Below are positions 6,491 to 38,843 of a stretch of 64,000 bases of DNA, piece by piece (the stretch's first letter is position 1; every line of letters begins with the position of its first letter). The stretch is from a virus. Made by a program: the position numbers and the translations under genes. The notes below the pieces were generated by a model. The model had not been told where the DNA came from, searched no databases, and saw only the letters and a list, made by a program, of their open reading frames with translations. The DNA is taken from positions 1,984 to 65,983 of IMG/VR virus record IMGVR_UViG_3300050143_000020. One strand, written 5' to 3'.

Positions 6491-8452
6491 ATGAAACATT
6501 ACAAATATCTATTAGAGGCGTTAGATAAGCATCAAACAAGTGCTGTTGATTACTGGAAGGACATGCACGGTACAGATGCTTCTAAAGCATTATCTGACCA
6601 TGTGATGAAAGGGGAAGATACGATTCATCTTCCCCTGAAATCAAAAGAGGATCATGTTGGAGAGATTCCTTCAGATGTACACGAACATCTTAGATCGAAT
6701 GGATTTGATATTCCTTCTTTTCATGAATACAGGGCAGGATATGCAACAGATAAACATGGTCGAATGGTTTCGATCGGAAAAGCTTTAACAAAATCAAAAG
6801 CTCCTCCAGAGTTGAAGAACAAGTTTGATAACGATCCTGCTAGACAAACAAAGCAATCAGATCTTCATGTCGCTATAACTCGTGATCCATATCATGTAGC
6901 CGGTATGTCTACCGATAGAGGGTGGACATCATGTATGCATATGTATGATGGATGTAATGCCCAACATATAGAGCAGGATCTTCGACATGGAACTCATACA
7001 GCATATCTGATTCATAAAGATGATAAAAATATTGAGAATCCGATCGCTCGTATAAATCTGAAACCTCATGTCAACTATGAACACGATCACACAATTCTTC
7101 GTCCAGAAGGAACAACATACGGAACAGGAAACGATCAATTCCATTCTACTGTGAAAGAATGGGCGGAACAGCATTTTCCTATGAAACACGATGGAAATTA
7201 TCAACCGCATGGCGATGTTTATGAAGAAACCGGAGTCTGGTACAATAAAAATGCATCTCATATACCAGATCAATTCAGACATCTAACAAATCCAAAAAAT
7301 CACGATGGTAGATCTATCTTCACTGATGGCGAATTGAATGTATCTGCTAATGATTTGATAGAACATGCTCCTAAACATGTTTCATATCACATTCTGAATT
7401 CTATTAATTCTTCAAATGATTCTGATGAAACGAAGAATCATCAAAGAATGGCTCTAGCTAATCTTACTAAGCATCACGATGTAATGAACTCATCAATGCA
7501 TGGATTATCTCCTGCTGACAAACATCATATGTTAACAGGAAAATATCAATACCAAGATTCAAAATTCGCATCTCAGATGTTATCTCATGCATCTAAATTC
7601 AAGGTTGATCCAGAACATACAGGAGATGCTATCGATCATGCTTTGAAAAATGAAGGAAGTTCTTTGGATATTAAAGCCGGTAATGATGAACAAGCTACAA
7701 AAATCCTCAATAAAGTTGGAGCTAAAGACTATCTATCTCTAAGATCCGGCAAAGAGTCTAATGAATTTATCAATAAGCTTGCTAGAGATCCTGAACTAAA
7801 ACCAAATCATCTAATTGACATTGCCCATTTGTTAGATGCAGATACAATACATCATTTGATTGATAAACACGGTGGAAAGATTTCAGATGGATTTCTTCAT
7901 AACGAAATGTCAACTAATTCAAATTATGATCAATCGCATGCTGATAGAATTTCCAGTCTTTTTGATTCAAAGAGTAGAAAATATCAATATCATGCTTTGA
8001 AGTCTATTCCTGATGATGCAATGAAGAATTATCCTGGATTGGCTGAGTATGCTTTACATAATGTAAAAAATCGTGATATCTTGCATAAAGCAGTCGATCA
8101 CATCAACGAGCATGGCACATCCACAGCAGTTCCTATAAAAGCAATTAAAGCTGCTGGTGATTTTGTTGGTGATAAAAAGATAGCAGATTTCATAACACAT
8201 TCTCCTCATGTTCATAAAAATGCAATCAGTTATCTAGATTCTGCTAATGCTAACAGATTGCATATACATGCTTTGAAATCAGATAATCTGACAGCAGAAC
8301 AGAAGTATCCACACCTCAAAGCTATCATGGATACAGAGACTCCTAGATCATATCAATTTGCTGCAATGGATGTTTTGAAAGGAACTGATATGGAAGATCA
8401 AGCAAAAGCAGGATTTCGTAAAGTTAAGAATCATGATCAAGGAATGCAATGA
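6491..8452 (+). CDS. His-rich hypothetical protein, possible capsid-packaged/ejected protein
   Basis: 653 aa; N-terminal LLE motif; DPYHVAGMSTDRGWTSCM block I recall from large-phage hypothetical proteins; follows a late promoter. Confidence 0.6.
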   Translation: MKHYKYLLEALDKHQTSAVDYWKDMHGTDASKALSDHVMKGEDTIHLPLKSKEDHVGEIPSDVHEHLRSNGFDIPSFHEYRAGYATDKHGRMVSIGKALTKSKAPPELKNKFDNDPARQTKQSDLHVAITRDPYHVAGMSTDRGWTSCMHMYDGCNAQHIEQDLRHGTHTAYLIHKDDKNIENPIARINLKPHVNYEHDHTILRPEGTTYGTGNDQFHSTVKEWAEQHFPMKHDGNYQPHGDVYEETGVWYNKNASHIPDQFRHLTNPKNHDGRSIFTDGELNVSANDLIEHAPKHVSYHILNSINSSNDSDETKNHQRMALANLTKHHDVMNSSMHGLSPADKHHMLTGKYQYQDSKFASQMLSHASKFKVDPEHTGDAIDHALKNEGSSLDIKAGNDEQATKILNKVGAKDYLSLRSGKESNEFINKLARDPELKPNHLIDIAHLLDADTIHHLIDKHGGKISDGFLHNEMSTNSNYDQSHADRISSLFDSKSRKYQYHALKSIPDDAMKNYPGLAEYALHNVKNRDILHKAVDHINEHGTSTAVPIKAIKAAGDFVGDKKIADFITHSPHVHKNAISYLDSANANRLHIHALKSDNLTAEQKYPHLKAIMDTETPRSYQFAAMDVLKGTDMEDQAKAGFRKVKNHDQGMQ

Positions 8453-20073: not shown

Positions 20074-21372
20074 ATGTCTGATAAGATTATTCAAGCCGCA
20101 TATGTCAAAATGTTGGCTTTGAAAGAGAAGATTAGACGCAAACGCTTACTTCCTATTGCATATGATGGGAAGGTTGATTCAGAATATCAGAAGAAAGACA
20201 AGAAAGATGATCTAAAAGAATCTTTCTTCGGGATCAAAAATGTTCTGAGTGGCGAAGGCAGCACATCAAATAAATCCTTTGTATTGAATACATCAGATTT
20301 GAGTCTAGCAGAAAGACACGATCTTAAGAAGAAACATCTTCCAGCAGAGCCAGAGAACAAAGCATTGGAGGATCATGTCGATTCAATGATAGATTCTCAT
20401 CTTGCAGGAAATCATAATCCTAATTTATCTCTTGATATAGTTGAGGCAATCAGCAAACATTCTGTTCATGAAAACAGACTACAGATGAATGCAAAATATG
20501 GCTATGCAATAGCAAGGCAAAAAGATCCAACTCTACCAAACCCAGATAAGACACATAAGTCTGAATATACGACAGATGAGGTAAGAAATCATATCGCAAA
20601 TGGCTTCATACCTCATTCGTCTGGTGGGATTTTTCGATCTATTCATGATACGACTAATAGCATAAACTATCAGCATAATGATGGAAAATATCATCAAGTC
20701 AATAGCTTTAATTATGCTCAACTTGGAAAATTTAATGTTCCTGCAGATGAACTTAAAAAGTTCACAGATACAAGAGAATCTTTAGAAAGAATGGGTGTTG
20801 GTAATTATCAACACGAAAAAGCAATCGAAGAATATACCAGAACATCAGAGGGATTGAATAGATCTTTGATAGATTCTCATGTGAATAATACTGATCATGA
20901 AGATAATGAACATGCTCTACATAGTAAACATCTATCAGAAGCAATTCATCAAGCTACCCCAAAACCTGATTTTGACTTCCATGTTTACACAGGAATTTCT
21001 CATGAAATAAACATGAAGAAGATCATGGATGACAATAAGCATAAGCCTGTTGTTGCAGTTCACTTTCCTCCTTTCACATCAACATCATTGGTTAAATCTA
21101 CAGCATCAGGATTTGCTCATACAAAATTAGATGATCATATCAAAGGTGTCCGTCATGTTGCAGAAGTTTTGAAAATACATGTTCCTGCTGGACATAAAAG
21201 AGGAATGTATGTCGATCATTATTCATCAAATCCAGATGAACACGAATACATCTTGGATAAAGGACATGTTTTACATTTTCCTCATCAAGAACCAACATAT
21301 GAGTTCAAACATGGGACAGCTACAAGAACGTGGCATGCTCATATCAAACCGAACGGTGAAGAAGACGATTAA
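20074..21372 (+). CDS. ADP-ribosyltransferase-fold protein (VIP2/Alt-like C-terminal domain)
   Basis: YT..S..LN..L helix, VYTG, FTSTS, VLKIHVPAG, DEHEYILDKG; canonical Arg position reads Thr. Confidence 0.8.
   Translation: MSDKIIQAAYVKMLALKEKIRRKRLLPIAYDGKVDSEYQKKDKKDDLKESFFGIKNVLSGEGSTSNKSFVLNTSDLSLAERHDLKKKHLPAEPENKALEDHVDSMIDSHLAGNHNPNLSLDIVEAISKHSVHENRLQMNAKYGYAIARQKDPTLPNPDKTHKSEYTTDEVRNHIANGFIPHSSGGIFRSIHDTTNSINYQHNDGKYHQVNSFNYAQLGKFNVPADELKKFTDTRESLERMGVGNYQHEKAIEEYTRTSEGLNRSLIDSHVNNTDHEDNEHALHSKHLSEAIHQATPKPDFDFHVYTGISHEINMKKIMDDNKHKPVVAVHFPPFTSTSLVKSTASGFAHTKLDDHIKGVRHVAEVLKIHVPAGHKRGMYVDHYSSNPDEHEYILDKGHVLHFPHQEPTYEFKHGTATRTWHAHIKPNGEEDD
20149..20172 (+). repeat. 24-nt exact repeat, copy 1 (CTTCCTATTGCATATGATGGGAAG)
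   Basis: Identical to 38784..38807; both read LPIAYDGK in frame. Confidence 0.9.
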
Positions 21373-21389: not shown

Positions 21390-21412
21390 GTTGAACCGTT
21401 ATGGAGTCAACT

Positions 21413-22921
21413 ATGAAAATCGAAAAATACAACGAATCCCATCTTAGAGTCTTTGCATCATCCGATGTTCTTTCGGAGATCAAAGACTTTTTTACATTCA
21501 AAGCTCCTGGATATAGGTGGCATCCAAAATTTAAAGCAAAACTATGGTCAGGGGATATCAGTCTGTTTAACATGCAAACGAACAAGCTTCCGTTAGGCTT
21601 GCATGACTTGCTTTTGACATACGCAGAAAAAGCAGGAGAAGATGTTGATTACATCGTAAATCCAAAATATACCGACTTCGGAAAAGAAGAAATTTCATAC
21701 GACGAACTCGTTGATTTCATAGGAACACTTCAGGTAACGAATTCAGAAGGTTTGCCTATAACCCCTAAAGACTATCAAATCGATGCAGTATACAGCGCTC
21801 TAGTCAATCGTAGACGTACTCTGTCTATGCCAACTGGCTCTGGTAAGTCTTTAACGATTTATATCATCATTCGATGGCTTCTTGCTCGTGAGAAAAGAGT
21901 ATGTCTCCTGGTTCCTTCTGTATCTTTGGTGAAACAAATGATTTCTGACTTCATCGAATATTCTATCGGAAATGGGTTTGATATAGATTCAATGTCTACT
22001 CTTCTTTTCTCTGGACAAGAACGAAATTTTGATCCTCCTATCTTGATTTCTACATGGCAGACAATCTCCAAGATGATAAAGTTATCACATGGAATGAAGG
22101 TCTTGAATTCATACGATGGGATCATCATAGACGAATGCCATACCGCGAAGGGGACTGAGCTTCAGAAAATCCTAGATTTAGCAACTGATGTTCCATATAA
22201 AATCGGTACGACAGGAACAGTCGATAAAGAAAAAATCAACGAATTATCAATCGTTGGTGCTCTAGGACCAATCGAGAAGATCATCACAACAAAAGAGCTA
22301 ATGGATAGCGGATCTCTTTCTGATATGATCATCAAAGGGATCATTCTCCAGTATCCAGAAGAAACATGTAAACTCAATAAATCTCTGGAATACCAAGACG
22401 AATTATCTTTCATATGTGCTCATAACGAAAGAAGCAAGATCATTGCAAATCTAGCTTTTGCGTCTACAGGGACAACGATGATCATGTGCAACTTTATTGA
22501 TAAGCATCTCATTCCTCTCTATGAATACATCAAATCAAGAGCAGAGAAATACGGAAGAGAAGTTTATATGATTCATGGAGGTATTTCTGCTGATGAAAGA
22601 GAACGGATCAGAAAATATGCTATCGCAAATCCAGGCATCATTCTTGTGGTTAGCTATGCAACATGTCAGGCAGGTATAAATATTCCGAACATAGAAAATG
22701 TTATCTTCGGATCTCCATCAAAATCTATGATTCGTGTCTTACAGTCAATCGGACGAGGACTCAGAAAAGTAGAAGGAAAGAAGATGACTTTGATTGATAT
22801 CGTAGATGATATGCGATACAAGAAATATGAAAACACAATCTTCAAACACTTCCTTGAAAGAATGAAGATTTACAGAATCGAAAAGTTTGACATTGAACTG
22901 AAAGAGATACAAATCAAATGA
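21413..22921 (+). CDS. uvsW: UvsW SF2 DNA helicase
   Basis: FTFKAPGYRWHPKFK..W.G.I.LF; PTGSGKS; DECH; QSIGRGLRK; start moved to the ATG after the GGAG RBS. Confidence 0.95.
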   Translation: MKIEKYNESHLRVFASSDVLSEIKDFFTFKAPGYRWHPKFKAKLWSGDISLFNMQTNKLPLGLHDLLLTYAEKAGEDVDYIVNPKYTDFGKEEISYDELVDFIGTLQVTNSEGLPITPKDYQIDAVYSALVNRRRTLSMPTGSGKSLTIYIIIRWLLAREKRVCLLVPSVSLVKQMISDFIEYSIGNGFDIDSMSTLLFSGQERNFDPPILISTWQTISKMIKLSHGMKVLNSYDGIIIDECHTAKGTELQKILDLATDVPYKIGTTGTVDKEKINELSIVGALGPIEKIITTKELMDSGSLSDMIIKGIILQYPEETCKLNKSLEYQDELSFICAHNERSKIIANLAFASTGTTMIMCNFIDKHLIPLYEYIKSRAEKYGREVYMIHGGISADERERIRKYAIANPGIILVVSYATCQAGINIPNIENVIFGSPSKSMIRVLQSIGRGLRKVEGKKMTLIDIVDDMRYKKYENTIFKHFLERMKIYRIEKFDIELKEIQIK

Positions 22922-23310
22922 ATCTAGTCAACTATGGTATATCAGACGCTACAGTTCTTTTCAAGAACATTGTACTTGCTAGACTGAAAACAGGAGAGAA
23001 TCTTATCTCCTATTCTTACCATCATTCAAATGGAATAGTTCTTTTCTTGCCCATGGAACTTGTCAGACAAGAAGATGATTCATTCAGCATGAGATCGTTC
23101 TTGCCATTTGTTAAAGAGAGAATCTTTTACATCTCGATTGATGATGTTCAACTTGTAAAGAGTAATCTCATCCAATACATCTCTGATTCATACATTAAAA
23201 TGACAGAGACTCTTTACAAGAATGATATAGATGATGTTCTCTTCTCTGCTGAATCATTCAAGCAAGTAGAAGCTGAAATAGAGTTATCATCTGGAGCTAT
23301 CGTACACTAA
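22918..23310 (+). CDS. Hypothetical protein downstream of uvsW
   Basis: 130 aa ORF with ATGA overlap; ends ..VH like proteins at this position in T4-like phages. Confidence 0.6.
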   Translation: MNLVNYGISDATVLFKNIVLARLKTGENLISYSYHHSNGIVLFLPMELVRQEDDSFSMRSFLPFVKERIFYISIDDVQLVKSNLIQYISDSYIKMTETLYKNDIDDVLFSAESFKQVEAEIELSSGAIVH

Positions 23311-23329
23311 TCTTCATGTAACTGATCAT

Positions 23330-23883
23330 AGCTACGCCCCGTCATGGTGATAAAGACCTGATTGATAGGAATTTATTGAAACCTTATGACGTGCAGTTCC
23401 TTTTATTGAGTGAGGAACTCTTAAGAAATGAATCTTATCAATTGTATCAAAAGAGAAGAATATCAGGAATGATGGAATCTGGAACGAAAGTGACAGTCAG
23501 TCAAAGATGAGGACCTCAATGCTTTTATTCTTTAGGATTTATAGTGGATTGTTCTTATTATTCTTTTATCAATCGTAGTTCGTATTCTAGTGATTTCTTT
23601 CAACTTTGTTATCAGGCGCATTTTTATTCCTCACGGAAACAGATTGCCAACTGTTACTAATATCACCAATAGAGCCTGTTTATTCTGTAGTAATCAACTA
23701 CATGACCTGCGGGGCGTAGAAGACAGTGTATAACTCACCGTCTGAACAGGAAGTGCTAATCTTTTTTGACTAAGCACAAAACTTTTCCAAAGCATTCTCA
23801 TATCTTCGGAGCTCATTTGTCTAGCATCTCTTTTCTTTCCAGCAACCGAGACATGGTTCTTTTCTAAAGGAGGAAGTCCTATG
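23330..23883 (-). ncRNA. Candidate structured non-coding transcript or origin-priming RNA
   Basis: Gene-free ~750-bp gap; minus-strand sigma70 promoter; long-range stem 23332-23346/23701-23719; hairpins with G-U pairs only on the minus strand. Confidence 0.4.
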
Positions 23884-23889
23884 ATTTTA

Positions 23890-23918
23890 AGTTTACACCG
23901 ATCCGACATCATTGTCAA
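23890..23918 (-). promoter_or_regulatory. Sigma70-type promoter TTGACA-17-TAAACT firing leftward
   Basis: Reverse complement of 23890-23918 matches the early promoter consensus used elsewhere in the window. Confidence 0.7.
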
Positions 23919-24007
23919 GCTCTTTTTGTAAAATATTTTTAATCATGCTTCTATTTACTATACCATCTTTTGATTCGAGATGAACAACAAGAAAAATCAG
24001 AAAGATC

Positions 24008-24036
24008 TTGACATCTATCAACTATTTTGTTATAGT
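24008..24036 (+). promoter_or_regulatory. Early promoter TTGACA-17-TATAGT
   Basis: Direct consensus match, divergent from the minus-strand promoter. Confidence 0.8.
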
Positions 24037-24069
24037 TATGACATTGTTTAGTTATGACTGGAGATTATT

Positions 24070-24303
24070 ATGAAAGAATTGACCTTTAAGCTGCCTAAGT
24101 TTTTTCGTAAGCCATTGGCTAAGACGTTCATCGATCTTCCTTCTGGTCATCGTATCTATAGCGAGATCTTGCGTGGTCCGAATACAGTGTGTTTCATCTT
24201 TGCTCCTGTGAAGATTTTTGGTAAGATCTTGTTTCGTCGTCCTACTTTTGTTTGGACAAATTCTATTCAAAATGCGATCGTTTGGGTGAACAACTATGCC
24301 TAA
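24070..24303 (+). CDS. Hypothetical protein
   Basis: GGAG RBS; first gene after promoter. Confidence 0.7.
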   Translation: MKELTFKLPKFFRKPLAKTFIDLPSGHRIYSEILRGPNTVCFIFAPVKIFGKILFRRPTFVWTNSIQNAIVWVNNYA

Positions 24304-24544
24304 TATTAACAGTGCATATTATTTCTTTTGTCTTGGCTTTCGTAGTGTGGTTACATACAATGATACGATTTTGAATGATGAAGATGAAGCTTGGAGTAAT
24401 GTCTTATCTGACAACACAATCGTAGCTTCATTGAAAGATTCTTCCGAAGATCGATTACGCGAAGTTGTTTTTGCTGTTCTAGAAGGATTTACAATTGATC
24501 ATACAGTAAGAAAAATGTTGGAGAAAGCATACTATGGCAACTAA
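24296..24544 (+). CDS. Hypothetical protein
   Basis: ORF track; overlapping operon packing. Confidence 0.6.
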   Translation: MPNINSAYYFFCLGFRSVVTYNDTILNDEDEAWSNVLSDNTIVASLKDSSEDRLREVVFAVLEGFTIDHTVRKMLEKAYYGN

Positions 24545-24553
24545 TCTTGTTTC

Positions 24554-24922
24554 ATGTCCTATGTGTGGAAAACGTTTATCATGAGAAATATCAACCGCTA
24601 TAACATTCAGTATTGGCTTTATGCTGTTCTAAATAAACAGTACGGCGAACTCGTTAAGTTGGATCGTTCATATGTTGCTCGTATGTATGATGTGAACAAA
24701 CACGATTTCGAGATCAACATAATTTTTAACAGAGACAACGATGCCCTCGAATCGATTCGAGATTTTCTGAATCGAAAATTGCTAGACTCTGGTTACAAAT
24801 TGACAACAGGATTTTATGAAAAGTTCTTTGGCAACAAACGCGTGGTGATTCGTTTGACTTTTGGAAAGATGCTGGATGACGAATACCATCTTTCATTGTC
24901 TTCTTGGGTGTATTCAAAATGA
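24554..24922 (+). CDS. Hypothetical protein
   Basis: ORF track; operon packing. Confidence 0.6.
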   Translation: MSYVWKTFIMRNINRYNIQYWLYAVLNKQYGELVKLDRSYVARMYDVNKHDFEINIIFNRDNDALESIRDFLNRKLLDSGYKLTTGFYEKFFGNKRVVIRLTFGKMLDDEYHLSLSSWVYSK

Positions 24923-33635: not shown

Positions 33636-33890
33636 ATGAGCTATATTATGCATCTGAACACCGGAAAGCTTGATTTCGATAAGAATCGTAACATGTTGAT
33701 TCTTAGGAATTACATGGATGCTTTTCCAGATGAAGTGAAGGTTGTTTCTGACCATACTGGCAAAGTTGTTCGTTTCATTGCTGATTATGAAGAGGCAGAA
33801 CGTAATGAATTCTGGGATGGCGAGATGTATCAATATAAAAGTGTTGATGATCGACATCCTGATATTGTCTTGATTTTTGTGCGAGGTTAA
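33636..33890 (+). CDS. Hypothetical protein
   Basis: GGAG RBS before ATG 33636. Confidence 0.7.
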   Translation: MSYIMHLNTGKLDFDKNRNMLILRNYMDAFPDEVKVVSDHTGKVVRFIADYEEAERNEFWDGEMYQYKSVDDRHPDIVLIFVRG

Positions 33891-33892
33891 TT

Positions 33893-34087
33893 ATGGCTAA
33901 GATTTATCTTTTGGTTAAAGAGTTCTATGGTGATTTTGACATCCATCAAGAACAAGTGATCGGAGCCAATGAATCAAGCGTATTCATTGACACAATGGTT
34001 AATCTATACAACAATACGAGAACAAATGAAGAACTTCGTCAAGAAGTTTCATATTCCAAGAAATATGTTCCAATCATCGGAGAATAA
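33893..34087 (+). CDS. Hypothetical protein
   Basis: GAGG RBS. Confidence 0.65.
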   Translation: MAKIYLLVKEFYGDFDIHQEQVIGANESSVFIDTMVNLYNNTRTNEELRQEVSYSKKYVPIIGE

Positions 34088-34089
34088 TC

Positions 34090-34542
34090 ACGAAATACAT
34101 TGTATTCATTCTGGATGACATTGAACAGATTTTTATTTTTCCACGAATAGTTGATCATGATCGGTTTGCTGAAGGAATTGAAGCTATCCGATTTGGATCC
34201 GATAGAAATTGGGAACGAAAACTTCGGACAGAAGGTACTATTATTGCTGCTGGATTCATCGACCAAGGCAAATGTTATGGTCGATCAGAGACGTTGGATT
34301 TAGATTCTAGAGGCGATCTTGATACAGCTTTGTTGAAGGCATATTTTAATTGGAGAAATATCATGGCTGCTGTTATTGGATATGATCAGATTGTTTACAA
34401 ACGTTTCACTTGCTTTCGATGTAAGGCAATTGTTGAATATCATCCACTTGATGTTGTTTTGCTAGAAAAGACAGATCAACAGAATCGACGATATGCTGTC
34501 GAATGTCCATCTTGTCATAGGTACACCGATGTAGAAATTTGA
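34090..34542 (+). CDS. Paralog of 37713..37976 with an ACG start, in frame with a downstream zinc-ribbon ORF (own ATG at 34363)
   Basis: TKYIVFILDDIEQIFIFPRIVDHDRFAEGIEAIRFG... aligns with MKYVVMGLNGQESIFLFPRHVDHDRFVEGIEAIRFG...; C-terminal CFRC...CPSC. Confidence 0.6.
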   Translation, partial: TKYIVFILDDIEQIFIFPRIVDHDRFAEGIEAIRFGSDRNWERKLRTEGTIIAAGFIDQGKCYGRSETLDLDSRGDLDTALLKAYFNWRNIMAAVIGYDQIVYKRFTCFRCKAIVEYHPLDVVLLEKTDQQNRRYAVECPSCHRYTDVEI

Positions 34543-34594
34543 CATGGTCATACTGAAAGCAAAATGCATATCAATTAACATATAAAGAGGTATC

Positions 34595-34762
34595 ATGAAA
34601 ACAGGCGATAAATTCCGAAACAATGAAGGTACGATTGCGACAGTAAATGCAATTCGTGGTAAGAAGGTTTTCTTCTCTATCTCAACTGTTCGAGATCAGA
34701 AAGACGTTGGTCAAACAACAGAAGAAAATTTCCAGAAACGTTTTCCTATCAAGGTGAGCTAA
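34595..34762 (+). CDS. Small hypothetical protein (55 aa)
   Basis: GAGG RBS; MKTGDKFRNNEG..., translated by hand. Confidence 0.6.
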   Translation: MKTGDKFRNNEGTIATVNAIRGKKVFFSISTVRDQKDVGQTTEENFQKRFPIKVS

Positions 34763-34763
34763 C

Positions 34764-34934
34764 ATGGAAAAGATCATCTGTGCTATTTTTATTGGTTGTA
34801 TTGGTGGTGCGCTTGCTTGTTTGGGTCAATCTTTTGGCTTGTATCTTGTATCTTGTTTCTACTCACTGGGCTCTTGTTTTCCTTATTGGATTTCTCATTA
34901 CACAAGTAGCTTTGCTCGGAGGAGATATCGGTGA
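34764..34934 (+). CDS. Small hydrophobic protein, possibly frameshifted
   Basis: MEKIICAIFIGCIGG...; a second hydrophobic frame runs to 34946. Confidence 0.35.
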   Translation: MEKIICAIFIGCIGGALACLGQSFGLYLVSCFYSLGSCFPYWISHYTSSFARRRYR

Positions 34935-35011
34935 CTTTTTTGACTAAAGATGAAATCATAGCTATCTTAGAAAAGCTTAAAATTATAGCATCGTTTTGAA
35001 AGCTCTAAATT

Positions 35012-35425
35012 ATGACACGCATCAATCTAATCCACCCGCATGAGCTTTGTGATAAACATCTTATGGCAGAATACAGAGAACTTATCCGTATTCCTAATGC
35101 AGTCTTCTCTGAACGTATGAAGACACGCTATGCTGATGCTCCGAAGAAATACACGCTCGGAACAGGGCATGTGAAGTTCTTTGTTGATAAGCTTCGTTGG
35201 CTACATGAACGCCATGATTCTCTTTTCTGTGAGCTATGTTATCGCGACTTCAATGTTACGATGATGACATGGGAAAATCGCCTTCTGGATTTCTTCGAAG
35301 AAAATAATCTTTATAATGACTTTACACCGAGCCCAGAAGAGGTTACAATAAACCTAGAACGGATTGTTGAACGACTTCCAAAGAATGCTCGTTGGACACA
35401 TCGAGAAGAACCTTTTTATGTTTGA
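35012..35425 (+). CDS. denV: Pyrimidine dimer DNA glycosylase (endonuclease V)
   Basis: MTRINL..P.EL.D.HL.AEYREL.RI, YTLGTGHVKFF.DKL. Confidence 0.93.
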   Translation: MTRINLIHPHELCDKHLMAEYRELIRIPNAVFSERMKTRYADAPKKYTLGTGHVKFFVDKLRWLHERHDSLFCELCYRDFNVTMMTWENRLLDFFEENNLYNDFTPSPEEVTINLERIVERLPKNARWTHREEPFYV

Positions 35426-37976: not shown

Positions 37977-38299
37977 ACAAAGAAGAATTTCGGAGAGTTG
38001 TTTGTGAAGAACTTTTTATGACAAGAGCAGGATACATTACAAATAAGTTTGCTGATCATGTCGATCAAACACCTTATGTAGATGCTCTATACGATCGTAT
38101 TTTCTCTGGAGTTTCATCAAATGAAGATGGATGGACTCCTTGGATTGAAGCAACAGAAGATCCATTTCCTGCAATCACACGTATTGCAATTGAAGCAGAG
38201 ATAGAAACATCTACTCGATTCGAACGGATATCATATCCATGTTTCAATTATTCTATCTATGCTGGCGTCTTACGTTATCGTCTAAAATTGGAGAAATAA
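37973..38299 (+). CDS. Hypothetical protein
   Basis: ATGA overlap. Confidence 0.6.
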   Translation: MNKEEFRRVVCEELFMTRAGYITNKFADHVDQTPYVDALYDRIFSGVSSNEDGWTPWIEATEDPFPAITRIAIEAEIETSTRFERISYPCFNYSIYAGVLRYRLKLEK

Positions 38300-38300
38300 A

Positions 38301-38489
38301 ATGTTTGGAATTTTTACAAATCTTACGAAGGCTGCTTTGAATGTAGCTGTTACTCCCCTTGCCGTTGCAAAGGATATTGTATCTTTGCCTGTTACAGCAT
38401 ACGAGGATAAGAATCCTTTTGAATCAACATCCAAGGTTCTCGACAACGTATCAAAGTCTCTGAACAAAGCATTGGATCCAGACGAATGA
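38301..38489 (+). CDS. Small amphipathic conserved phage protein
   Basis: MFG....L.KA.......P.A...D.V pattern; GGAG RBS. Confidence 0.65.
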   Translation: MFGIFTNLTKAALNVAVTPLAVAKDIVSLPVTAYEDKNPFESTSKVLDNVSKSLNKALDPDE

Positions 38490-38674
38490 TCGCTTTACGA
38501 TGGTTTGTCAAAGAAAACGGAGAGAAAGTTCTTCAAGTAAGAACTCAATCTGATTTTATTGGAGGAAGACCAGCATCTGATTGGTTTGATATTCCAACAA
38601 TTTATGAAAATGACACTATGAACATAAATTCAATCATGAAAGAAATCAAAGATAAGTATGACATCAAAGAATGA
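38486..38674 (+). CDS. Hypothetical protein
   Basis: ATGA overlap. Confidence 0.55.
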   Translation: MIALRWFVKENGEKVLQVRTQSDFIGGRPASDWFDIPTIYENDTMNINSIMKEIKDKYDIKE

Positions 38675-38843
38675 TATCACAGGTGATGCAATCAGAACCG
38701 ATTCTCCTTCGGATGCATACCGAGAAAACTATGATCGAATCTTCGGTAAGAAGAAAAAAGATCAACAAGAAAGTAAGAAAGATCTTCCTATTGCATATGA
38801 TGGGAAGTGCGATCTATCGGAAGAATCAACAAAGGCTGATTAA
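38658..38843 (+). CDS. Small T4-like conserved protein with an LPIAYDGK tail
   Basis: KNDITGD.I.T...SDAYRENYDRIFGKK. Confidence 0.65.
   Translation: MTSKNDITGDAIRTDSPSDAYRENYDRIFGKKKKDQQESKKDLPIAYDGKCDLSEESTKAD
38784..38807 (+). repeat. 24-nt exact repeat, copy 2
   Basis: Identical to 20149..20172. Confidence 0.9.

Follow-up and report, generated by a model that had tools for sequence, protein, structure and literature searches.

The stretch of 64,000 nucleotides (nt) studied here (the window; positions 1,984 to 65,983 of the IMG/VR record IMGVR_UViG_3300050143_000020) is part of a 70.7-kb record of an uncultured virus that is about 41% complete according to CheckV and that represents a distant T4-like lineage. 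The open reading frame (ORF) 21401-22921 encodes UvsW (Pfam UvsW_N, ResIII and Helicase_C), the closest cultured relatives of which, in T4-like phages of cyanobacteria and of Pelagibacter, are at most 40% identical. Between the plus-strand ORFs 22918-23310 and 24070-24303 there is a gap of 759 nt (23311-24069). We conclude from comparative sequence analysis that the minus strand of this gap very probably holds a free-standing gene (23882-23327) for a structured non-coding RNA (ncRNA) of about 556 nt that belongs to a previously uncatalogued family in uncultured phages. The locus has the general marks of a structured ncRNA gene: helices with compensatory changes, strand-specific G-U pairs, and a promoter of its own. 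The original prediction of a novel ncRNA of about 550 nt, transcribed from a minus-strand promoter, is borne out by strong covariation, by the lack of matches to Rfam, tRNA and tmRNA models, and by the absence of a conserved ORF.

Relatives in T4-like and in GC-rich phage contigs

A search based on UvsW led to locus L001, which has a UvsW protein 65% identical to that of the window and the syntenic gap; positions 23548-23885 of the window align to L001 7573-7912 with 67% identity (blastn). Homologues of a neighbouring protein of 130 amino acids (aa) gave access to two further loci on short Logan contigs, L006 (identical to L007 and L008) and L009, with 73-75% identity. From the four-way alignment we took the invariant block CCAUGUCNCGG-N8-AAGAAAAGNGAUGC (RNA sense) as a search pattern, and scanning IMG/VR and the JGI metagenomes with it yielded a fifth T4-like member, L019, as well as shorter members, about 16 of them distinct, from GC-rich phage contigs. 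The T4-like members (five sequences including the window) are called group A in the following, and the shorter ones group B. The RNAs of group A measure 429-606 nt when counted from the motif onwards; those of group B have about 300 nt and reside in contigs unrelated to the T4-like phages. Many contigs carry identical copies of the window sequence, and the runs listed as holding it are all from leaf-litter DNA and none from RNA. The 70.7-kb record itself contains one copy of the RNA, as judged from a search with a model of the 5' domain.

Among 185,579 genomes of prokaryote species, the motif scan gave one true match, on a 2.9-kb contig of a metagenome-assembled genome that is nearly identical to L036; the hit L040 from the same scan is a chance match that model R2 fails to recognise. 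No match to the gap or to three GC-rich members was found by blastn in 50,697 GenBank phage records. When three pairs of the pseudoknot PK-A (see below) were freed in a relaxed scan, no genuine variants appeared, and the hits L044 and L045 are chance matches in a coding region. Two other patterns were discarded: CTTTTCTT..GACATGG recovered only the contig of L001 itself, and CGCCNGATAAYA..GTTGAAA gave three chance matches (L014-L016). Two weak secondary matches of covariance model R1, at L028 12164-12244 (E 0.024) and L031 1255-1371 (E 0.063), are probably noise.

Covariation supports a multi-pseudoknot fold

All RNA sequences are given in the minus-strand sense of the window. The RNA has at least 11 supported helices, five of which are pseudoknots (Table 1). 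When the 11 helices were counted over the five sequences of group A, 97.6% of 288 cells were paired and compensatory double changes occurred at 33 of the 60 positions, as compared to 35-42% and 2-5 positions in slid controls. The core of group A gave a similar picture in a structure-blind MAFFT alignment: 97.4% of the cells are paired, 12 of 24 pairs have changed on both sides, none of 500 shuffles reached this score, and slid controls gave 30-39%. For the core of group B, a model-fitted alignment resulted in 80.8% paired cells and a covariation of 0.535 versus 0.188. A helix-by-helix comparison indicates that the two groups have one architecture in common. It had been proposed to collect the syntenic gap from related phages and to look for covariation, and in these relatives the stems are indeed both conserved and covarying. 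Z-scores from minimum free energy folding were uninformative (-0.18 and -0.52); thus, thermodynamics by itself could not have exposed the element.

The 5' pseudoknot is almost invariant and common to both groups. In a MAFFT alignment of 20 sequences, 91% of the cells of the 5' domain are paired, and its covariation is 0.405 versus 0.110 for shuffles and at most 0.054 for slid controls. The short helix S1 varies with retention of pairing (UUCC/GGAA in the window, UUCCG/CGGAA in L006, UCCG/CGGA in L019 and UCCU/AGGA in L001), and P2 has the form of an NNCC/GGNN stem with the loop AUGUCNC throughout the family. In PK-A, six bases of this loop pair with GN'GAUG that lies after the A-rich strand. 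The pair N/N', the sole position left free by the search pattern, is a Watson-Crick pair in 19 of the 20 sequences, with four pair types. Group B has GGUAC in front of S1, similar to the GGAC found at the predicted 5' end of the T4-like RNAs.

Between PK-A and the closing helix (CL), group A has three additional hairpins. The place of P3a is taken in L006, L009 and L019 by a different yet self-complementary hairpin, as read by eye. P3b changes from GUGCU..AGCAC in the window and L001 to GCAAU..AUUGC in L006 and L009, and its inner AGUC/GAUU in the window becomes UGAU/AUCA in L001. P3c reads AGACGGUG/CACUGUCU in the window, GAAGAUG/CAUCUUC in L006 and L009 and GGAAAGUG/CACAUUCC in L001, and is shortened to GACGG-UUCG-CCGUC in L019.

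The core is held by CL, which corresponds to the GC-rich long-range stem seen in the initial inspection of the window (23332-41/23710-19). It becomes AACCCUCCCG/CGGGAGGGUU in L001 and GCAAUCCCG/CGGGAUUGC in L019, and in group A 49 of 50 cells pair, with compensatory double changes at 6 of 10 positions. In group B, 94.6% of the cells of the homologous helix are paired versus 51-58% in offset controls, and its 5' strand sits in the loop of a short hairpin, P3. A CUAUG or UAUG tail trails CL in both groups. The extension of this stem by TCATG/CATGA that had also been suggested is not conserved: L006 and L009 have GGUAA there, and part of the sequence belongs to PK-E. Within the core, P4 (96% paired in group A, three covarying pairs) presents its loop for PK-C, the second strand of which follows the conserved joiner UUGAA. 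PK-C occurs as UGAUU/AAUCA, UGACU/AGUCA, UGAUC/GAUCA and UGGCU/AGCUA; it is 96% paired with three covarying pairs in group A and 94% paired in group B, where all five pairs covary. P5 (CAGGC/GCCUG, CCGGC/GCCGG or CGAGC/GCUCG) is paired in 100% of the cells in group A and 90% in group B; P6 in 100% in group A; and PK-D (GGCA/UGCC, GACA/UGUC or GCG/CGC) in 94% and 95%, respectively. The loop of P6b is GUGA, GCAA or GAAA, i. e. of the GNRA type, in all five T4-like sequences. Finally, PK-E varies from the window to CCUCGAUA/UAUCGAGG in L006 and UGGUCAAA/UUUGACCA in L001; in group A, pairing is seen in 39 of 40 cells and covariation at 6 of 8 positions, and in group B 90.5% of the cells are paired versus 54-61% in offset controls.

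A hairpin of the AU-rich 3' domain changes by eye from GUUCC/GGAAC to GUCC/GGAC in L006 and GUCU/AGAC in L001. With this hairpin, the five local hairpins noted at the outset all map to conserved helices, the others being P3b, P3c, P4 and P6.

The 3' flank of the RNA (23309-23326, UGAUCAGUUACAUGA) can pair with 23688-23702, i. e. the 5' side and loop of P4, to give a 15-bp helix with three G-U pairs. This pairing is specific for the window and absent from L006 and L009, and it may be due to chance or be a lineage-specific switch.

Table 1. Predicted features of the RNA gene and of the adjoining promoters in the window.
Feature	Position	Strand	Remarks
Predicted RNA gene, about 556 nt	23327-23882	-	Conservation with L001, L006, L009 and L019
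Sigma-70-type promoter	23890-23918	-	-35 TTGACA 23918-23913, 17-nt spacer, -10 TAAACT 23895-23890
Second promoter, TTGACA-17-TATAGT with TG extension	24008-24036	+	Strong; consensus scan
5' pseudoknot domain	23825-23875	-	S1, P2, A-rich strand, PK-A
S1	23872-75 with 23837-40	-	Leader pairs with the linker following P2
P2 hairpin	23855-58 with 23844-47	-	Loop AUGUCUC
A-rich strand AGAAAAG	23830-36	-	Family form A(A/G)GAAAAG
PK-A	Loop UGUCUC 23848-53 with GAGAUG 23825-30	-	H-type pseudoknot
P3a (UCCGAAG/CUUUGGA)	23786-23810	-	Variable; T4-like group only; read by eye
P3b hairpin	23753-23777	-	First noted as 23752-776
P3c hairpin	23721-23743	-	First noted as 23720-743
Closing helix CL, 5' strand CUACGCCCCG	23710-23719	-	Long-range stem of the original prediction
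P4 hairpin (UGUAG/CUACA)	23686-23702	-	Loop UGAUU 23692-96 forms PK-C
P5 domain	23613-23678	-	P5 CAGGC 23674-78 with GCCUG 23613-17
PK-E, 5' strand UGGUGAUA	23661-23668	-	Inside P5 domain; pairs with 23345-52
P6 hairpin	23638-55	-	Within P5 domain
PK-D	P6 loop GCA 23645-47 with UGC 23618-20	-	Just before P5 3' strand
P6b hairpin	23627-38	-	GNRA loop GUGA
PK-C, 3' strand AAUCA	23591-23595	-	Preceded by conserved joiner AUAACAAAGUUGAAAGA 23596-612
AU-rich, less conserved 3' domain	23353-23590	-	Length varies between relatives; insert between PK-C and PK-E
3'-domain hairpin	23396-418	-	First noted as 23395-419; by eye
PK-E, 3' strand UAUCACCA	23345-23352	-	3 nt before CL 3' strand
Closing helix CL, 3' strand CGGGGCGUAG	23332-23341	-	Followed by conserved tail CUAUG 23327-31

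Promoter, strand and coding potential

The minus-strand promoter that had been read in front of the RNA was recovered by a consensus scan, in which it matches the consensus at 10 of 12 positions, and its -35 (TTGACA or TTGATC) and -10 elements recur with equal spacing in L001, L006 and L019. The RNA is predicted to start near 23882, at the A of the conserved CAUAGGAC and 8 nt past the -10 element, and to end at 23327, after the conserved CUAUG that trails the closing helix. The minus strand is also indicated by the pairs themselves: the helices of group A contain 13 G-U cells and one A-C cell, and the tandem U-G/G-U in PK-A is invariant and would consist of mismatches if read on the opposite strand. 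These pairs identify the minus strand as the RNA strand, in line with the promoter, and so the strand assignment made earlier from the G-U pairs of two hairpins holds.

The same asymmetry bears on the idea that the locus acts as DNA, its inverted repeats being the ends of a mobile element, a protein-binding site or a recombination site. Such an element could account for the perfect 10-bp inverted repeat (CTACGCCCCG/CGGGGCGTAG, 23332-41/23710-19) that flanks about 370 bp, and for the different genome positions among the phages. However, the 13:1 ratio of G-U to A-C and the invariant G-U pairs, which would be mismatches in DNA, the eleven covarying helices including loop-to-strand pseudoknots, and the conserved promoter that reads into the locus all speak against it, and neither a target-site duplication nor a transposase was seen. 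We regard a DNA-level element as extremely improbable.

A minus-strand ORF of 74 aa (23694-23918) is open in the window, and the JGI gene callers annotate, in L010 and L011 (3777-3995), a hypothetical protein of 72 aa that covers the RNA's 5' third. That this ORF encodes the true product of the locus is next to impossible in view of the following observations. First, its start codon, TTG, falls within the -35 hexamer, and it has neither a Pfam nor a PHROG match. Second, the homologous segments of L006, L009, L019 and L001 contain 1-7 stops in every frame, and in all four relatives they have indels that are not multiples of three. Finally, the substitutions compensate one another in the helices and do not cluster at third codon positions. 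Since the frame is not conserved in the relatives, the 72-aa annotation looks like a mis-annotation, and annotation pipelines should mask the locus to avoid the call of this spurious protein over the RNA.

Several points weigh against a new family of free-standing RNA genes as outlined here. The RNA gene is a prediction from sequence, and so are its 5' and 3' ends. The window lacks an intrinsic terminator 3' of the RNA; the 3' end may be produced by processing back to the closing helix. In group B no promoter is recognisable, nor is one of the sigma-70 type discernible between the terminator-like hairpin that usually precedes the RNA and the RNA itself. The family was gathered with a fixed sequence pattern, so that part of the apparent constancy of the 5' motif results from the search itself, and the T4-like sequences number five, with L006 and L009 being closely related. 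The equivalence of the cores of groups A and B depends on our own helix-by-helix comparison: the covariance model R1 of the GC-rich core misses the T4-like members, and P4 and P6 score poorly in the count for group B, owing to register shifts in the alignment. Moreover, the function proposed below is based on analogy only.

Relation to catalogued RNAs

The window and 13 loci were compared to the 4227 models of Rfam 15 with cmscan. No model reached its gathering score in the 64-kb window or an E-value of up to 10 on 23000-24300, and the relatives were likewise negative at E<=0.1 (seven loci) or E<=5 (six short loci). ARAGORN detected neither tRNA nor tmRNA in the window and no tRNA in 18 of 19 loci; L019 carries a single tRNA about 5.5 kb from the RNA. 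The initial remark that the region has no hallmarks of tmRNA or RNase P agrees with the negative ARAGORN and Rfam results for the former and the negative Rfam result for the latter; the order of the helices is presumably also unlike that in RNase P, group I introns and tmRNA. We found no description of this RNA family in the literature.

ROOL and GOLLD are "ornate" large RNAs borne by phages and prophages (Weinberg et al. 2009, 2017; PMC5737381) for which structures have been determined by cryo-electron microscopy (PMC12286853). The linkers of these large, pseudoknotted RNAs are variable, and a fixed protein partner is lacking (PMC12286853). The RNA described here is similar to them in many respects: It is phage-encoded and several hundred nt long, it has many helices and several pseudoknots with covariation, an internal linker of poor conservation and variable length, and no obligatory protein neighbour, and a function has likewise not been assigned. 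On the other hand, the Rfam scans revealed no sequence or profile similarity to GOLLD and ROOL, the order of the helices differs, and, in contrast to these RNAs that are often next to tRNA genes or arrays, there is no tRNA gene nearby, that of L019 being the distant one mentioned above. Moreover, to our knowledge no almost invariant 5' H-type pseudoknot occurs in GOLLD or ROOL.

The 5' domain itself recalls a different class of RNAs. PreQ1-II and SAM-II riboswitches and pistol ribozymes are H-type pseudoknots with an A-rich third loop, and as in these RNAs, a loop forms six base pairs with a strand after an A-rich linker, with invariant loop and wobble nucleotides. Unlike in these RNAs, however, the motif comprises only the first 50 nt or so of an RNA of 300-600 nt, the linker pairs partly with the 5' leader (S1), and there is no match to their Rfam models. 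It might still be argued that the RNA is a divergent member of a catalogued family such as GOLLD, ROOL, an HDV-like or pistol-like ribozyme, RNase P or tmRNA that has been missed by the models. The likeness to GOLLD and ROOL and the topology of the 5' domain, which is reminiscent of pistol or HDV-type nested pseudoknots, could be taken in this sense; yet none of the Rfam models matched even at E<=5-10 on short stretches of the members, and the negative ARAGORN result and the presumably different helix orders of RNase P, group I introns and tmRNA make such a relation very improbable. By sequence and profile comparison, the family is new and has no detectable relation to catalogued RNAs, and in general type it belongs with the ornate phage RNAs.

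Genomic neighbourhood and rival roles

The RNA and the uvsW operon are convergent in the window and in L001. In L019, a contig without detectable similarity to the window, the RNA adjoins gp55- and gp47-like genes. In group B, it is located between genes for replication initiators, ParB-methylases or Mom-like proteins on the one side and HNH or small-terminase genes on the other; here it is co-oriented with its neighbours and usually found just past a terminator-like hairpin. Indeed, most loci of group B have such a hairpin with a U-run 20-60 nt upstream of the RNA (e. g. L021 ~1985-2015 and L027 ~1480-1510). No protein family is constantly present beside the RNA, and the top-ranking clusters consist of spurious ORFs that overlap the RNA. 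The differing neighbours in L019 and group B and the lack of a shared adjacent family support the idea that the RNA is a portable, independent module.

It had been suggested that the region may specify an origin-priming RNA linked to uvsW. Such an RNA would persist in an R-loop from which the leading strand is primed, in the way known from oriF and oriG of T4 and from RNA II of ColE1, and UvsW would later remove this R-loop. The arrangement in the window does resemble oriF (at uvsY) and oriG (at gene 34) in that a non-coding transcript is driven by a promoter and located in a gap among T4-like genes for replication and recombination, and in both the window and L001 this gap lies beside uvsW. 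In addition, the length is close to that of the ColE1 RNA II pre-primer, which is structured as well, the 3' domain is AU-rich, and several homologues of group B are near replication-initiator genes. However, the position relative to uvsW varies: the RNA of L019 has the neighbours given above, and most RNAs of group B are just before HNH or terminase genes in phages that are not T4-like. The promoter is of the -35/-10 type and not a MotA-dependent middle promoter. In T4 middle promoters, the MotA box is near -30 and lies 11-13 nt from the -10 element; here, a GCTTGA upstream overlaps the -35 element and is 19 nt from the -10 element. Finally, it is the fold of the RNA that is conserved and not a promoter with an unwinding element: a primer has no need of a selected knotted fold with loop-to-strand pairings and a GNRA loop, and the AU-rich part is the least conserved of all. 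The selected fold, the variable position and the occurrence in phages that are not T4-like argue against an R-loop origin linked to uvsW. Thus, the origin-priming idea finds no support, we consider it quite improbable, and the RNA is independent of uvsW and most probably no replication primer.

The RNA might also act in cis or as an antisense regulator, either as a riboswitch-like leader or by read-through that silences the convergent uvsW operon. In L019 and group B, co-oriented ORFs start 20-100 nt after the RNA; in the window, the RNA and ORF 22918-23310 are convergent and no terminator separates them; and the H-type pseudoknot with its A-rich strand resembles small ligand-binding aptamers. 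Yet the downstream genes vary from locus to locus, no co-oriented gene follows the RNA in the window and in L001, and known leaders are far smaller than this RNA with its 300-600 nt and five pseudoknots, and we therefore think a role as a regulator of adjacent genes improbable.

A putative RNA tool for the infection

How might the free-standing RNA proposed here work? Its promoter in the T4-like group is of the host sigma-70 type, and this would allow early transcription by the unmodified host polymerase. The transcript would then fold into a compact particle. Covariation supports a 5' domain in which S1 encloses P2 and the loop of P2 reaches past the A-rich strand to GNGAUG to form PK-A; S1, P2 and PK-A may stack as a three-helix domain, with the A-rich strand probably placed in a helix groove. 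It likewise supports a core in which CL encloses P4 with its loop engaged in PK-C, and P5 with PK-D, and in which a strand inside P5 forms PK-E at the 3' end beside CL; PK-C, PK-D, PK-E and CL may lock the core, and the AU-rich insert may serve as a flexible linker. The functional site could be the invariant 5' pseudoknot, through which the RNA would contact a ligand, a metal, a protein or a second RNA.

By analogy to the proposals for GOLLD and ROOL, it is tempting to speculate, with low certainty, that the RNA acts in trans, either as a particle made of RNA only or by serving as scaffold in a ribonucleoprotein complex. A more specific version holds that the RNA acts alone, early and in very different phages: as a new ribozyme with the tandem U-G/G-U and the A-rich strand as active or metal site, or as an RNA-only multimer like ROOL and GOLLD in which the AU-rich insert is the flexible linker. 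This version is possible but doubtful.

Large intricate RNAs without an assigned function are rare, and each has turned out to represent unusual biology, such as ribozymes, riboswitches and RNA cages. The family spans a distant T4-like lineage as well as GC-rich phages unrelated to it, and over this distance it has kept five pseudoknots and a near-invariant 5' motif. This spread, the fixed fold, the lack of a tied protein gene and the apparent early host-type promoter in the T4-like group speak for a portable RNA tool that serves the phages in infection. The short form of about 300 nt is a compact target for structure determination and for binding, cleavage and assembly tests.

Further observations at the locus

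The plus-strand promoter at 24008-24036 faces the short ORFs 24070-24922 and is located about 90 bp from the promoter of the RNA in opposite direction; the gap is thus a divergent promoter region. The bases upstream of the -35 element of the RNA promoter (AAGAGC before TTGAC or TTGAT) are kept in the window (23919-23925), in L001 (~7937-7945) and in L019 (upstream of 7204), and L006 differs there (AATGC). They could be a UP-like or regulator site. In L001, an additional small plus-strand ORF (67 aa, 7163-7366) lies in the space (7018-7366) that separates the RNA's 3' end from the uvsW-neighbour gene, and the stop codon of this ORF abuts the CUAUUAG tail of the RNA.

The gap that contains the RNA gene had been described as the only large gene-free gap. 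It is the largest one in the window, but other ORF-poor gaps of 400-540 nt also exist (~33890-34294, ~34542-35012 and ~38299-38843); these have no Rfam match at the gathering score. Finally, a gene for an ADP-ribosyltransferase (Pfam ADPrib_exo_Tox) is located at 20074-21372, 2.5 kb from the RNA gene. T4 enzymes of the ModB type couple NAD-capped RNAs to host proteins, and a tie between the ADP-ribosyltransferase and the A-initiated RNA is pure speculation.

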